Source: Escherichia coli (lineage in GTDB: Bacteria; Pseudomonadota; Gammaproteobacteria; Enterobacterales; Enterobacteriaceae). From it: DNA of 64,000 nt. The DNA lies in the NCBI RefSeq assembly GCF_051903065.1, contig NZ_CP178438.1. One strand, 5' to 3'. The notes below the pieces were generated by a model, which was not told where the DNA came from, did no database searches, and worked only from the letters and a program-made list of their open reading frames with translations. The number at the start of each line of letters is the position of its first letter. Position 1 is the stretch's first letter. Below, in pieces: positions 13,386 to 17,040 of this stretch. The position numbers were made by a program, and so were the translations under genes.

Positions 13386-13620
13386 CCTGTATTACTCCAT
13401 GTATTGCCAAAATCTCTCTCTGTATCTAATGACAGGTAACTGAAAAGAAAGATATTTTTTGCACCTCATAATCCGTTATTAAACGCGGAAGAGAGACGTG
13501 AATTGTTGATGATGAGAAGAAGAAATGATGAGCAGAGTGTCCATATAAAATCCTTTTCTCGCCCGAAAATCCATTCCAATGATGAGGATCTTCAGGAATA
13601 CGGCATAAATCCCAATGCCT
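13386..13620 (-). promoter_or_regulatory. pgaA 5' leader (CsrA-regulated untranslated region)
   Basis: About 230-nt untranslated leader with several GGA motifs on the transcribed strand, one overlapping the SD; extent is from recalled literature on the pgaABCD leader, not measured here. Confidence 0.5.
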
Positions 13621-13973
13621 TTTTCAAAATAAGTTAGGAGTAAAATAATTAAATCAGTAAATTCCGATGCATGATTTCGGATTTTTCGAAAGTCCTGATG
13701 AAATGCAGCGTTACTGTACTCACCGATTCAATTGTTATTCCTAATATATCTATGAATGAATGTTTTATAAGGATTTCCTTATAACCATTTATAAATATTT
13801 GCAAGCCTGTCTTGTCGCAAAGAATGTATAAAGCACTAAGGTAATAATAATTGCGGTCTGCAACTATCATCATCGGTATTGTTTGTGAGTGGGTTTTCAT
13901 ATTGACAACTGTACAGTTCTTATATCTATTAATAATAGAAAGGGATCTACAACCTACAGGTTGGTGTAGCTTT

Positions 13974-15332
13974 ATGGAAAAAGACTATTTGAGAATTAGT
14001 AGTACTGTCTTAGTGAGCTTATTGTTTGGGCTTGCTTTGGTTTTGGTGAATAGTTGGTTTAATCAGCCAGGCGTTGAGGAAGTTGTTCCACGATCAACCT
14101 ATCTGATGGTAATGATTGCTTTATTTTTTATCGATACTGTTGCATTTATTTTTATGCAGTTGTATTTCATTTATGACCGTAGGCAATTTTCAAACTGTAT
14201 ACTTAGTTTGGCTTTTCTGAGTTGTTTGATTTACTTTGTTAAAACCGTCATTATCATTCAGCAAATGATTGAGGGGCGTTTGACAAGCAGTGTTGTTCAA
14301 AATGACATTGCAATTTATTATTTGTTTCGTCAGATGAGTTTGTGCATATTAATATTTCTGGCATTGGTGAATAAAGTTAGTGAAAACACAAAACAGCGCA
14401 ATTTATTTTCCAAAAAAATGACTTTGTGCATAAGTTTGTTTTTTGTTCTTGGGGGGCCGATAGTTGCTCACATACTTTCTAGCCATTATGAGAGCTACGA
14501 TTTACACATTGCCGAGTTAACCAATGAAAATGGTCAAGTGGTTTGGAAAACTTCATATGTTACCATAATGATTTTCATGTGGTTAACCTTGCTTTCGGTT
14601 AATCTATACTTTAATGGTTTACGCTATGATATCTGGAACGGAGTGACGGTGATTGCTTTTTGTGCCGTACTGTACAATGTCTCTCTTTTATTTATGAGCA
14701 GGTATAGCGTGTCCATTTGGTATATTAGTCGCACTATTGAAGTAGTCAGTAAGTTAACCGTTATGGTAATATTTATGTGCCATATATTCAGTGCGCTACG
14801 AGTAACAAAGGACATTGCACATCGCGATCCCTTAACCAATATATTTAACAGAAATTATTTTTTTAATGAACTGACGGTTCAATCAGCATCGGCCAAAAAA
14901 ACGCCTTATTGCGTCATGCTTATGGATATCGACCACTTCAAAAAAGTCAACGACACCTGGGGGCATCCGATTGGCGATCAGGTGATAAAAACAGTGGTGA
15001 ATATCATTGGGAAAAGCATACGGCCAGATGACCTTTTTGCGCGCGTCGGCGGCGAAGAGTTTGGCGTCTTGCTGACGGACATCGATACTGAACGTGCGAA
15101 AGCTTTAGCGGAAAGGATTCGGGAAAATGTTGAGCGTTTAACTGGTGATAATCCTGAATACGCCATACCACAAAAAGTGACGATTAGTATTGGCGCTGTT
15201 GTGACTCAGGGAAATGCGTTAAACCCGAATGAGATCTATCGACTGGCTGATAACGCACTATACGAGGCGAAAGAGACCGGGCGTAATAAGGTGGTTGTGA
15301 GGGATGTGGTGAATTTTTGTGAGTCACCATAA
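13974..15332 (+). CDS. dgcT: Diguanylate cyclase DgcT (YcdT), membrane GGDEF protein
   Basis: 452 aa from the internal ATG (MEKDYLRISSTVLVSLLFG...), multiple TM helices, GGEEF motif in RVGGEEFGV; track start 13851 is an upstream in-frame extension. Confidence 0.9.
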   Translation: MEKDYLRISSTVLVSLLFGLALVLVNSWFNQPGVEEVVPRSTYLMVMIALFFIDTVAFIFMQLYFIYDRRQFSNCILSLAFLSCLIYFVKTVIIIQQMIEGRLTSSVVQNDIAIYYLFRQMSLCILIFLALVNKVSENTKQRNLFSKKMTLCISLFFVLGGPIVAHILSSHYESYDLHIAELTNENGQVVWKTSYVTIMIFMWLTLLSVNLYFNGLRYDIWNGVTVIAFCAVLYNVSLLFMSRYSVSIWYISRTIEVVSKLTVMVIFMCHIFSALRVTKDIAHRDPLTNIFNRNYFFNELTVQSASAKKTPYCVMLMDIDHFKKVNDTWGHPIGDQVIKTVVNIIGKSIRPDDLFARVGGEEFGVLLTDIDTERAKALAERIRENVERLTGDNPEYAIPQKVTISIGAVVTQGNALNPNEIYRLADNALYEAKETGRNKVVVRDVVNFCESP

Positions 15333-15525
15333 AGCGGCATTTTAGCGGGTGATTTTGGTAAGCGCTAAATAGCTATTCGCAGACATGCGTAACAATTTTC
15401 AGAAATATCATAGTACTATATGATCTTAAATGCTTATCATTGATCAGTCTGCTATCACCCGCTTTTACTGGCAATTGTACTATAATTTCTTAGGTTGTAT
15501 CACCCTGATGCGTGGGGAAACATGT

Positions 15526-17040
15526 ATGGTATTCAACAAAAAAATGTTTGTACTCATTATAATACCAGGCATTCTGGGGGTGTTACTGTCGTTTGCTATG
15601 TCAGTATTTCAAATGAATCGAGATACGACAATTACCGCCGGTATTCTGTTAAAACAGCTTGATAATGTTACGCAAATTGTCCAGCATACGACAAAGCTTA
15701 CCTCTATTCTGGTGATGAAGCCCTGCAAAGACATTCTTGAACAGTTGATTGCTAACGGAGCATTGACTCCCTATGTTCGAACAACGGGTCTTATAGAAAA
15801 TAATTTCCAAATATGTTCTTCAGTTAGCGGTTTCAAAAAAATGAATGTTAACGATGTTTACGGTACGAGCTTTCACAATAAAAATAAAGAATCACGCATA
15901 GTATCCATTAGCGGTACAAGTTTTGTACCAGGTAAAACAGCCATAGTATTCCTTATGCCAATAGGGAATGATATGACAGCTTTTAGTATTGTAGAGTCAC
16001 GATATATCTATGATCTAATGGATGTTCTTGATGATGAGAATGATGATTCATTTTCTCTTAGCTTTACTGAAGGGCCTGCAATTATTAGTGGTGTAAATAA
16101 TAATGACAAGTTATATATGTTAAAAAAAGATTTTAATTCTGCGATCAGTCAGGCTAGTCTTACAGTTACTACGCCGATGATTTCATTATATCCCTATGTC
16201 ATTAGTAATGTGTTTTACATTCTTCCATTATCTATTCTTCTTTCTTTTATCCTGTACTTCTTATGGCAGCGCTGGATATCTCGAAAAATGTCCCTGGCAG
16301 AAGAAATTAAAAAAGGAATGTCATCTGGAGAATTTTCAGTGCATTATCAACCAGTATGTGACACGACAACAAAAGAGTGTCTGGGGGTTGAAGCGTTAAT
16401 GCGTTGGCAACGCGAAGATGGTAAAAATATATCTCCGGTAGTTTTTATCCGCGCTGCAGAAGAGGAAAATTTAATTATACCGTTAACTAAGCATCTCTTT
16501 GAACTGATTATTCAGGATGTACAAAGCTGGAAAGTGAAAAAGCCGTTTCACCTTGGGATAAATATTGCCGCGGAGCATCTTGCACATCCTGATTTTGTTG
16601 CTGATGTTTTACATATTAAAAATGCAATATCTGATAAATTTAACATTGTTCTTGAGATTACCGAACGCAATCTGGTTGAAGATACTGATCTTGCATTACA
16701 GAAAATAAATGAATTAAGGATCCATGGCTGTGAATTTGCAGTTGATGATTTTGGCACGGGATATTGTTCCCTTGGCCTTCTGCAAAAGTTGTCTGTTGAT
16801 TATCTTAAAATAGATAAAAGCTTTATAGACACACTCACTACAGCGGAAGACGAAACGCCAGTTTTAGATATTATTATTAAGCTGAGTAATCGACTCAATT
16901 TGATAACGATTGCAGAAGGTGTCAGTACTCCTCACCAGGCGGAATATCTTATTCATAATAACGTGACATTAGTTCAGGGATACTTATATGCAAAACCAAT
17001 GAAAGCGACAGAATTTTATCAGTGGTATGTAAACAGATAA
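15526..17040 (+). CDS. pdeT: c-di-GMP phosphodiesterase, CSS-domain EAL protein (PdeT/VmpA-like)
   Basis: N-terminal TM, periplasmic region with a CSS motif (QICSSVSG), second TM, then EAL domain (EALMRW, DDFGTGYCSL, KIDKSF, QGYLYAKP). Start chosen at ATG 15526 (GGGG SD, downstream of TATAAT at about 15479); frame is open from 15430. Confidence 0.75.
   Translation: MVFNKKMFVLIIIPGILGVLLSFAMSVFQMNRDTTITAGILLKQLDNVTQIVQHTTKLTSILVMKPCKDILEQLIANGALTPYVRTTGLIENNFQICSSVSGFKKMNVNDVYGTSFHNKNKESRIVSISGTSFVPGKTAIVFLMPIGNDMTAFSIVESRYIYDLMDVLDDENDDSFSLSFTEGPAIISGVNNNDKLYMLKKDFNSAISQASLTVTTPMISLYPYVISNVFYILPLSILLSFILYFLWQRWISRKMSLAEEIKKGMSSGEFSVHYQPVCDTTTKECLGVEALMRWQREDGKNISPVVFIRAAEEENLIIPLTKHLFELIIQDVQSWKVKKPFHLGINIAAEHLAHPDFVADVLHIKNAISDKFNIVLEITERNLVEDTDLALQKINELRIHGCEFAVDDFGTGYCSLGLLQKLSVDYLKIDKSFIDTLTTAEDETPVLDIIIKLSNRLNLITIAEGVSTPHQAEYLIHNNVTLVQGYLYAKPMKATEFYQWYVNR

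Follow-up and report, generated by a model that had tools for sequence, protein, structure and literature searches.

The closest precedent for a local c-di-GMP module acting on a PNAG-type operon is found in Yersinia pestis, in which an opposing pair, the GGDEF cyclase HmsT and the membrane EAL phosphodiesterase HmsP, controls HmsHFRS, the homologue of pgaABCD. HmsP has a HAMP-GGDEF-EAL rather than a CSS-EAL architecture, and the genes of the pair are unlinked to hmsHFRS. In E. coli, VmpA of O157:H7 EDL933 has been treated by Branchu et al. (2012/13, Vet Immunol Immunopathol 152:132). The gene vmpA/pdeT (Z1528) lies directly 3' of ycdT in EDL933 (PMC4287979) and has been assigned to OI-47 (PMC4076661). 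Herbst et al. 2018 (PMC5897775) name PdeT as an extra CSS-PDE of EHEC and EPEC, and describe DsbA/DsbB-dependent disulfide inhibition and DegP/DegQ processing for PdeC (YjcC) and PdeB of K-12. The literature already covers the genes dgcT and pdeT/vmpA, their position near pga, and the lack of pdeT in K-12 (Branchu 2012; Richter 2014; Herbst 2018), and gene identification at this locus adds nothing new to the arrangement described in O157:H7. The points added here are modest and concern the spread of pdeT beyond O157, the origin of the K-12 state, and a variant EAL signature in the PdeT clade.

We analyzed a 64,000-nucleotide stretch of an E. coli chromosome (the window), which is 100% identical to DNA of strain 23CRST027. 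The RefSeq labels on the identical DNA are dgcT and 'cyclic di-3',5'-guanosine monophosphate phosphodiesterase PdeT'. The pga genes were taken from the open reading frame list and the RefSeq annotation, the intergenic region and spacer from the sequence, IS1 from its terminal inverted repeats and a comparison of the flanks, the right-hand remnant from blastn comparisons with K-12 and the O157-type segment, and serX from the tRNA annotation and an Rfam match. The features are as follows.

7202-13385, minus strand: pgaABCD operon, PNAG synthesis and export machinery
7202-7615, minus strand: pgaD, 137 aa, full length
7617-8942, minus strand: pgaC, 441 aa, full length
8935-10953, minus strand: pgaB, 672 aa, full length
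10962-13385, minus strand: pgaA, 807 aa, full length
13386-13973: divergent pgaA-dgcT intergenic region, 588 bp
13974-15332, plus strand: dgcT (ycdT), 452 aa, inner-membrane diguanylate cyclase, MASE4 sensor and GGDEF
15333-15525, plus strand: dgcT-pdeT spacer, 193 bp
15526-17040, plus strand: pdeT (vmpA), 504 aa, predicted CSS-EAL c-di-GMP phosphodiesterase
17142-17632, minus strand: YqeJ-family/FidL-like small-protein pseudogene, two overlapping ORFs, RefSeq 'frameshifted'
17637-18260, minus strand: ToxR/MarT-like membrane-anchored winged-helix regulator, 5'-truncated pseudogene, RefSeq 'incomplete; missing N-terminus'
18263-19030, minus strand: IS1 (IS1A-like), 768 bp
19031-19329, minus strand: right-hand remnant with the last ~20 bp of ycdU, the ycdU-serX spacer, and serX
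19242-19329, minus strand: tRNA-Ser serX

The earlier note placed dgcT divergent from pgaABCD with pdeT next to it, and the ORFs lie as it claimed, beside an intact pga operon whose four protein sizes equal those of K-12. The first intergenic base after pgaA is 13386, and the final base of the pdeT stop codon is 17040. The order pgaABCD, dgcT, pdeT, FidL-like gene, and winged-helix regulator is common to the window and O157-type genomes.

The assignment of dgcT as a GGDEF cyclase was borne out. DgcT matched the Pfam models MASE4 (E=3.6e-68) and GGDEF (E=6.2e-50), and its hydropathy profile contained multiple hydrophobic segments. The A-site reads GGEEF (residues 359-363), and an RxxD I-site, RPDD (350-353), lies five residues upstream. 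Architecture, GG(D/E)EF A-site, and RxxD I-site are thus all those of a MASE4-GGDEF diguanylate cyclase. The protein is 97% identical to K-12 DgcT (YcdT), with 15 amino-acid substitutions. The K-12 protein is likewise a MASE4-GGDEF protein with GGEEF and RxxD sites, encoded divergently beside pgaA, but the 3' neighbor of its gene is IS3D, whereas in the window it is pdeT. In K-12, DgcT is CsrA-repressed, remains under the detection level, and has no share in the c-di-GMP pool (PMC5635695).

The pdeT product was compared with the EHEC protein. The gene sits in the same position 3' of dgcT, has no stop or frameshift, and encodes a protein identical to the O157-type protein at 529 of 536 residues. 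Hence, the description of pdeT as full length in the earlier note stands. In a 25-sequence alignment, all seven substitutions fall outside the columns that are invariant or nearly so. At the DNA level, identity is 97.9%. Locus, CSS cysteines, and the EGVS sequence described below are the same as in VmpA/PdeT of EDL933, and these similarities identify the window protein as the PdeT/VmpA orthologue. The dN/dS of 0.07 against the O157 allele (dS 0.087) indicates that pdeT evolves under purifying selection.

The domain content also agreed with a CSS-motif EAL protein. The CSS-motif match covers residues 32-190 (E=4.9e-13), and the EAL match (PF00563, E=2.6e-64) spans model positions 2-236 of 236, a full-length domain. 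Hydropathy and Pfam place TM1 at about residues 7-29 (within a hydrophobic segment at about 1-30), followed by the periplasmic CSS domain, TM2 at about 223-248, and the cytoplasmic EAL domain at 259-491. Two periplasmic cysteines are present, C67 and C97, the latter within C97-S98-S99. In alignments both were invariant among 25 homologues and also in K-12 PdeN and PdeC. PdeT therefore has the layout and the two cysteines of a PdeC-type CSS-domain phosphodiesterase, and PdeC and PdeB share its TM1-CSS-TM2-EAL order and its EAL catalytic residues. Among solved structures, the best relatives were the EAL domain of P. aeruginosa PA3825 (E=2.7e-45) and YahA/PdeL. We considered whether PdeT is the equivalog of a known K-12 enzyme. 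Its best NCBIfam model was NF007839, which we take to be the PdeN/Rtn family, with 312.2 bits against a curated cut-off of 461. In direct comparison with two CSS paralogues of K-12, PdeT was closer to PdeN (Rtn; 32% identity) than to PdeC (only 27%). Equivalence was rejected. Given the score below the cut-off and the low identities, PdeT is a separate paralogue.

The earlier note also stated that all catalytic motifs are present. We used the positions listed for RocR in PMC2952852, namely seven Mg2+/catalytic residues (E175, N233, E265, E268, D295, K316, and E352) and four residues that recognize c-di-GMP (Q161, R179, D296, and D318), with numbering transferred to PdeT by motif and spacing rather than by direct RocR alignment. 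The seven counterparts in PdeT, E289, N346, E377, E380, D407, K428, and E464, are all kept and were invariant in the 25-sequence alignment and in the alignment with PdeN and PdeC. The recognition counterparts Q275, R293, D408, and D430 likewise occur without variation in the alignments. PdeT matched the PA3825 structure residue by residue, metal ligands included (Glu39, Asn98, residue 130, Asp160, Lys181, and Glu217), and Q484 is a further conserved EAL residue. The statement therefore stands for all 11 RocR-defined catalytic, metal, and substrate residues. It does not stand for the EGVE signature, which lacks its second glutamate: PdeT reads AEGVSTPHQ with S467 (504-aa numbering), whereas PA3825, PdeN, and PdeC read AEGVET.

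The position that changes from EGVE to EGVS is highly conserved in EAL domains, and the change could reduce or otherwise affect activity. Taken further, PdeT may be catalytically impaired and act as a c-di-GMP-binding or trigger-type protein instead of an efficient phosphodiesterase. Römling-type classifications hold that deviations in signature motifs make activity uncertain (PMC12900916), and S467 replaces a residue found in all three relatives named above. However, the second glutamate is absent from the published essential set (PMC2952852); the glutamate that counts is the first one (RocR E352, PA3825 Glu217, and PdeT E464), conserved like all other listed residues. Furthermore, the S467-equivalent position is S, T, or N as a rule across the PdeT clade (Enterobacter, Klebsiella, and Citrobacter), under conservation, and the EGVS variant is a clade feature. 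The O157 allele also has EGVS, yet PMC5897775 and PMC4076661 cite the O157 orthologue as an active c-di-GMP phosphodiesterase. We consider an impaired PdeT very improbable.

Within the dgcT-pdeT spacer, a promoter and terminator scan found no intrinsic-terminator-like site, and RNA folding of the spacer gave no terminator hairpin with a U-run. Because no terminator was found between the genes, co-transcription of dgcT and pdeT is possible, and with it some functional coupling. The spacer also carries a perfect TATAAT (15481-15486). A Shine-Dalgarno-like GGGGAA (15514-15519) lies 6 nt ahead of ATG 15526; the alternative ATG 15430, which starts the longest pdeT ORF (536 aa), has no Shine-Dalgarno-like run. 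Given that the homology of O145:H28 to pdeT begins at the window-equivalent of 15521, 15526 is favored as the start.

The statement of the earlier note that K-12 has an IS here and lacks an intact pdeT proved right. In K-12, IS3D begins 11 bp past the dgcT stop and replaces 31.7 kb including all of pdeT, which is wholly absent and not merely damaged. OI-47, about 31.7 kb, comprises in order pdeT, the FidL-like gene, the ToxR-like regulator, a fimbrial operon, a two-partner secretion system, a fatty-acid/polyketide-like cluster, ymdE, and ycdU. Mapping onto the O157-type segment showed that in the window IS1 replaces 30.1 kb, which took the fimbrial operon, the two-partner secretion system, and the fatty-acid/polyketide-like cluster; comparison of its flanks revealed no target-site duplication. 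The two adjoining regulator genes are intact in O157-type DNA and pseudogenes in the window. IS1 took the promoter and about the first 62 codons of the winged-helix regulator, roughly half of its DNA-binding domain (Trans_reg_C covers residues 24-102 of the full-length O157-type protein, and the window ORF starts at the equivalent of ~74). The small gene, annotated as 'FidL-like protein' in O145:H28, has lost 1 bp at 17390 in comparison with the O157-type gene, which is intact and 492 bp long. Of an OI-47 segment cut short by IS1, pdeT is the gene that survives in the window strain.

We then surveyed 5426 complete E. coli genomes. The dgcT region was found in 4224 of them and pdeT in 415 (7.6%), and more than 90% of the dgcT-carrying genomes lacked pdeT. 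The gene is not O157-specific; it also occurs in non-STEC human isolates, including the window strain. The K-12 IS3-type junction was common to 2293 genomes (42%), and the K-12 state is derived, the product of a 31.7-kb deletion bounded by IS3. Besides this deletion, two independent IS1-bounded ones of about 30 kb were detected. The exact IS1 junction of the window was found in only 3 of the 5426 genomes. Given these independent IS-bounded deletions, OI-47 behaves not like a simple O157 insertion but like an ancestral segment that is being eroded.

The dgcT-pdeT stretch was contiguous in 381 of the 415 pdeT-positive genomes. Together with the adjacency of intact pga, dgcT, and pdeT in the window, the inner-membrane location of DgcT, PdeT, and PgaC/PgaD, the terminator-free spacer, and the Hms precedent, this is consistent with a dedicated membrane signaling unit in which PdeT, gated by redox state, would drain the c-di-GMP that DgcT makes and specifically set PNAG output through the c-di-GMP-activated PgaC/PgaD. 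If true, E. coli would have a redox-gated PNAG switch. However, the partners are not consistently co-inherited. Besides the absence of pdeT from most genomes with dgcT and pga, 27 O145-type genomes (O145:H28) have dgcT deleted and pdeT kept, and in RM12761 pgaB is frameshifted as well. In Enterobacter, Klebsiella, and Citrobacter, homologues of PdeT (50-56% identity) lie in accessory, adhesin- or IS-rich surroundings, and neither pga nor dgcT was found beside them. The rest of the segment of pdeT consists of adhesins with their own regulator, and the undetectable K-12 DgcT described above adds nothing to the c-di-GMP pool. These comparisons argue against obligate dgcT-pdeT pairing, and the evidence gives a local PNAG module no support over a general c-di-GMP sink. 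Such a unit is improbable. The same doubt attaches to a more far-reaching form of it, a long shot in our judgment, in which periplasmic redox sensed by Cys67-Cys97 would gate PNAG locally in a DgcT-PdeT-PgaC/PgaD unit and the intact pdeT after the IS1 deletion would reflect selection for a PNAG-linked function.

The composition of OI-47 raises another alternative, that the main role of PdeT is to coordinate the fimbrial and two-partner-secretion adhesins of the segment with motility, alongside the ToxR/MarT-like regulator and the FidL-like protein, and that it is here an orphaned remnant with its partners dead or deleted. In O157-type, PapM-32-1, and EC974 genomes, an uninterrupted run leads from pdeT through the FidL-like gene and the winged-helix regulator to the fimbrial operon. 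An E. hormaechei homologue (55% identity) sits beside a fimbrial operon and a Trans_reg_C/FidL_like gene pair, and a homologue in Citrobacter comes after a gene for a giant invasin/intimin-like adhesin. The regulators of E. hormaechei and OI-47 share a distant relationship (22% identity, E=3e-16), although the small proteins of the two pairs share no detectable similarity, and the Klebsiella homologue lies in a context without adhesin genes. Of this segment, the window strain has kept only pdeT intact; both regulator genes are in decay and the adhesin genes are gone. This suggests a value independent of the OI-47 cargo; the low dN/dS also fits poorly with an orphaned remnant. We regard this alternative as unlikely, if less so than a PNAG unit.

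The reading we hold to be very probable is that of an already described dgcT-pdeT pair, in which a CSS-domain phosphodiesterase with presumed redox gating is carried on an OI-47 remnant. Since pdeT is the first gene of OI-47, its adjacency to dgcT and pga is positional and not demonstrably functional. DgcT is an inner-membrane cyclase of the MASE4-GGDEF type whose active and inhibitory sites are intact; published work describes it as repressed by CsrA and expressed very weakly. PdeT is a predicted sixth phosphodiesterase of the CSS-domain class, an accessory one. If it behaves like PdeC and PdeB, a DsbA-dependent C67-C97 disulfide may keep its EAL domain in a low-activity state, and reduction may yield an active, TM2-dimerized form that converts c-di-GMP to pGpG. 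Redox control and DegP/DegQ processing are features of PdeC and PdeB, and would extend to PdeT by analogy between paralogues at only 27-32% identity. By lowering c-di-GMP, PdeT would favor motility and reduce biofilm, as reported for O157 VmpA, and any PNAG-specific role would run via the shared c-di-GMP requirement of PgaC/PgaD. IS-bounded deletions have trimmed OI-47 independently in several lineages: IS3D took all of it in K-12-type strains, and in the window strain IS1 removed everything right of pdeT while sparing pdeT itself.

Finally, the pgaA-dgcT intergenic region was examined by a six-strain alignment and by variable-site counts. The ~110 nt directly 5' of the dgcT ATG were nearly invariant, and positions 13700-13899 were unusually polymorphic between strains.

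The window is E. coli chromosome. Nucleotides 13386-17640 matched strain 23CRST027 (NZ_AP045789.1) at 100%, and partial matches were present in thousands of other E. coli genomes. The gene order combines the ORF list with the way RefSeq annotates the same DNA in 23CRST027.

Features around dgcT and pdeT (window coordinates and strand)
7202-7615, minus strand: pgaD, equal in length to K-12
7617-8942, minus strand: pgaC, equal in length to K-12
8935-10953, minus strand: pgaB, equal in length to K-12
10962-13385, minus strand: pgaA, equal in length to K-12
588 bp: divergent intergenic region between pgaA and dgcT
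13974-15332, plus strand: dgcT
193 bp: spacer between dgcT and pdeT
15526-17040, plus strand: pdeT
17142-17632, minus strand: YqeJ-family/FidL-like pseudogene, frameshifted
17637-18260, minus strand: winged-helix regulator pseudogene, 5'-truncated
18263-19030: IS1
Beyond IS1: tRNA-Ser serX, then ghrA

The earlier note had placed a cyclase/phosphodiesterase pair beside the PNAG operon at 13386-17040, which is exactly the intergenic region, dgcT and pdeT. Its naming of the second gene as an intact VmpA/PdeT also held: 529 of 536 residues were identical to the O157-type protein, and no stop or frameshift was present. The seven substitutions all lie outside alignment columns that are invariant or nearly so. 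The dN/dS of 0.07 between the window and O157 alleles (dS 0.087) indicates purifying selection on pdeT. In EDL933, vmpA/pdeT (Z1528) has been described as an additional phosphodiesterase gene that is inserted directly behind ycdT (PMC4287979). It is sited in genomic island OI-47 and affects biofilm regulation (PMC4076661), and it is counted as the sixth CSS-domain phosphodiesterase in certain EHEC and EPEC strains (PMC5897775). The activity of VmpA is given in the title of the primary paper (Branchu 2012) and in papers that cite it. The dgcT-pdeT system beside pga is already known, and the observation and its annotation-level reading are correct. PdeT shared 32% identity with PdeN and 27% with PdeC, and its best NCBIfam model gave 312 bits, below the cut-off of 461. 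Judged by sequence, none of the K-12 CSS-domain phosphodiesterases is orthologous to PdeT.

In the 504-aa form of PdeT, Pfam placed a CSS-motif domain at residues 32-190 (E=4.9e-13), followed at 259-491 by an EAL domain that is full-length (E=2.6e-64). Hydropathy indicated transmembrane segments at about 7-29 (TM1) and 223-248 (TM2). This layout of TM1, periplasmic CSS domain, TM2 and EAL domain is the one by which CSS-domain phosphodiesterases are defined (PMC5897775). The periplasmic C67 and C97, the latter within C-S-S, were invariant in alignments with 25 homologues and with K-12 PdeN and PdeC. Catalytic residues were assessed by the published RocR-based positions (PMC2952852), with PdeT-to-RocR numbering mapped by motif and spacing. 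RocR E175, N233, E265, E268, D295, K316 and E352 correspond to PdeT E289, N346, E377, E380, D407, K428 and E464, and RocR Q161, R179, D296 and D318 to PdeT Q275, R293, D408 and D430. All 11 positions were present in PdeT and invariant across the alignments. In addition, the mapping to the EAL structure of P. aeruginosa PA3825 was explicit in the HMMER alignment, which covers the metal ligands named in the structure paper (Glu39, Asn98, residue 130, Asp160, Asp161, Asp183 and Glu217).

PdeT had been said to carry all catalytic motifs. This was true of every RocR-based residue, but the EGVE motif reads EGVS (S467; motif residues 464-467, window 16915-16926), whereas PA3825, PdeN and PdeC have EGVE. 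The change hits the second glutamate; the catalytic, metal-binding first glutamate is kept. O157-type PdeT also has EGVS. Serine, threonine or asparagine at this position is the norm in the PdeT clade (Escherichia, Enterobacter, Klebsiella, Citrobacter and Serratia), and glutamate reappears only in distant Erwinia-type sequences. The statement is therefore essentially right, with one signature present in a clade-specific variant. DgcT, which was 97% identical to K-12 DgcT, had MASE4 (E=3.6e-68) and GGDEF (E=6.2e-50) domains (Pfam), and several hydrophobic segments lie within its N-terminal ~275 residues. Its A-site is GGEEF at 359, and its I-site is RPDD at 350, five residues upstream of the A-site. 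We show here that both proteins have, as predicted from their residues, complete catalytic equipment, and that PdeT has the predicted CSS-phosphodiesterase architecture and cysteines.

Records in RefSeq differ on the pdeT start: it is ATG 15430 in some, giving 536 aa, and 15526 in others, giving 504 aa. We favour 15526 as the probable start, because GGGGAA lies ahead of it at the right distance, the 32-residue extension of the longer form would lie before TM1, and pdeT homology in O145:H28 starts at window-equivalent 15521. The start at 15430 was rejected, as no Shine-Dalgarno-like sequence precedes it. In the dgcT-pdeT spacer, neither a terminator nor a known RNA element turned up in a consensus scan, a fold or an Rfam search. 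The stability of the spacer fold exceeded that of shuffled sequences only modestly (z = -2.3). Its predicted long-range pairing is due to a 10-bp inverted repeat, AGCGGGTGAT / ATCACCCGCT, at 15344-15353 and 15454-15463, which brackets ~100 bp of the spacer and begins exactly at the end of K-12 similarity. This repeat could have arisen by chance. The spacer also contains a TATAAT at 15481. Across the dgcT-pdeT junction, the window and the O157 allele showed 1 difference in 400 bp, compared with the dS of 0.087 in pdeT. Unusual conservation of the junction, a hint of a regulatory element, was nevertheless dropped, since four alleles gave 7 variable sites in 15300-15499, which is ordinary variability.

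The statement in the earlier note that K-12 lacks an intact pdeT and carries an IS at this site was right: in MG1655, IS3D starts 11 bp past the dgcT stop, followed by the ymdE pseudogene, ycdU and serX, and pdeT was lost in the deletion that this IS marks. In an O157-type genome, dgcT is followed first by pdeT, the FidL-like gene and the winged-helix regulator. Next come an SDR gene, a fimbrial operon and a two-partner secretion pair, and then a fatty-acid/polyketide-like cluster with ABC transporter genes and a LolA-like gene behind it; full-length ymdE (ACP S-malonyltransferase) and ycdU complete the segment. In K-12 (locus L003, 9246-10503), IS3D replaces 31.7 kb of this segment, starting 11 bp past dgcT and ending within ymdE. 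The K-12 ymdE pseudogene is the truncated end of a gene whose O157 copy is full-length, which makes the K-12 state the derived one. In the window (18263-19030), IS1 replaces 30.1 kb, from the regulator N-terminus to the last 20 bp of ycdU, and no target-site duplication was found at this IS1. In strain 14EC033 (locus L013, ~3587-4350), IS1B replaces 29.1 kb from window-equivalent 15430. These are three independent IS-bounded deletions of ~30 kb in the dgcT-to-ycdU segment, with different end points. This apparent repeated IS-bounded erosion of the OI-47 segment is one by-product of the analysis, beside the O145 dgcT deletion and the EGVS clade signature. Among 5426 complete genomes, pdeT was present in 415 (mostly O157:H7, plus O145 and scattered others), the K-12-type dgcT/IS3 junction in 2293, and the regulator/IS1 junction of the window in only 3. 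In B2-type strains, dgcT directly abuts serX.

The earlier note had also suggested a local signalling module of DgcT, PdeT and PgaCD. This found no computable support, and the comparative data are against an obligate unit. We consider a dedicated unit of this kind quite improbable. It would accord with the absence of a terminator-like structure between dgcT and pdeT, with the membrane location of DgcT, PdeT and PgaC/PgaD alike, and with pdeT being the sole OI-47 gene still intact in the window strain. However, pdeT is missing from >90% of genomes with pga and dgcT, and in O145:H28 a 1.76-kb deletion (window 13759-15520) took dgcT and kept pdeT. This deletion (strain RM12761, locus L010, 6639-7010) also takes the proximal upstream region of dgcT. 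The pdeT ATG thereby comes to lie ~370 bp from the start of pgaA, and pdeT and pga are directly divergent. Its junction occurred in 27/5426 genomes; in RM12761, pgaB is frameshifted too. The nearest PdeT homologues outside E. coli (50-56% identity) likewise lie in accessory contexts without pga or dgcT. The E. hormaechei homologue (locus L007, 325-13097) is beside a chaperone-usher fimbrial operon and a Trans_reg_C/FidL_like pair, that of Citrobacter (loci L008/L009, 232-9530) follows a gene for a ~2370-aa invasin/intimin-like adhesin, and that of Klebsiella is among unrelated genes and IS fragments. The E. hormaechei and Citrobacter contexts hint at a recurrent link of the PdeT-like clade to surface adhesins.

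Literature reports state that CsrA represses YcdT/DgcT, a diguanylate cyclase, and that DgcT was proposed as a PGA promoter only on the grounds of its divergent position. In K-12, DgcT was below detection and made no contribution to the c-di-GMP pool (PMC5635695). Redox control and processing of CSS-domain phosphodiesterases are described for PdeC/PdeB by Herbst et al. 2018 (PMC5897775). By analogy, PdeT would be kept at low activity by a DsbA-dependent disulfide between C67 and C97. Reduction would switch the enzyme on, accompanied by dimerisation through TM2 and processing by DegP/DegQ. PdeT activity would then lower c-di-GMP and influence motility and biofilm, if the O157 work, as cited by later papers, applies. 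Any PNAG effect of PdeT would act via the c-di-GMP requirement of PgaC/PgaD. This requirement is established, reportedly through the work of Steiner et al. in 2013.

The pair adjoining pdeT (17142-18260) is, from its reading frames, dead in the window strain. The FidL-like/YqeJ-family gene has a 1-bp deletion at 17390, and IS1 removed the first ~62 codons of the Trans_reg_C regulator gene; in three other genomes, this regulator gene carries a separate insertion, of IS1B. The combination of a small protein and a membrane-anchored Trans_reg_C regulator resembles the MarT/FidL or YqeI/YqeJ pair. The name of the small protein comes from RefSeq annotation only, as Pfam and NCBIfam gave no match to it, and no similarity was detectable between the small protein of the E. 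coli pair and that of the E. hormaechei pair.

Upstream of dgcT, 13700-13899 (75-275 bp before the start) was a hot spot of polymorphism: these 200 bp contained 29 variable sites among four strains, in two main haplotypes. The ~110 nt directly upstream of the ATG were almost invariant and contain the hairpin-forming CTACAACCTACAGGTTGGTGTAG beside the GGA-containing AAAGGGAT. Finally, dgcT, pdeT and both pseudogenes (13500-18000) were strongly AT-rich (GC 0.31-0.43), whereas the phoH/efeB and ghrA regions on either side have a GC of ~0.50. Nearly every E. coli carries dgcT, yet its composition is that of DNA that was horizontally acquired and is possibly silenced by H-NS.
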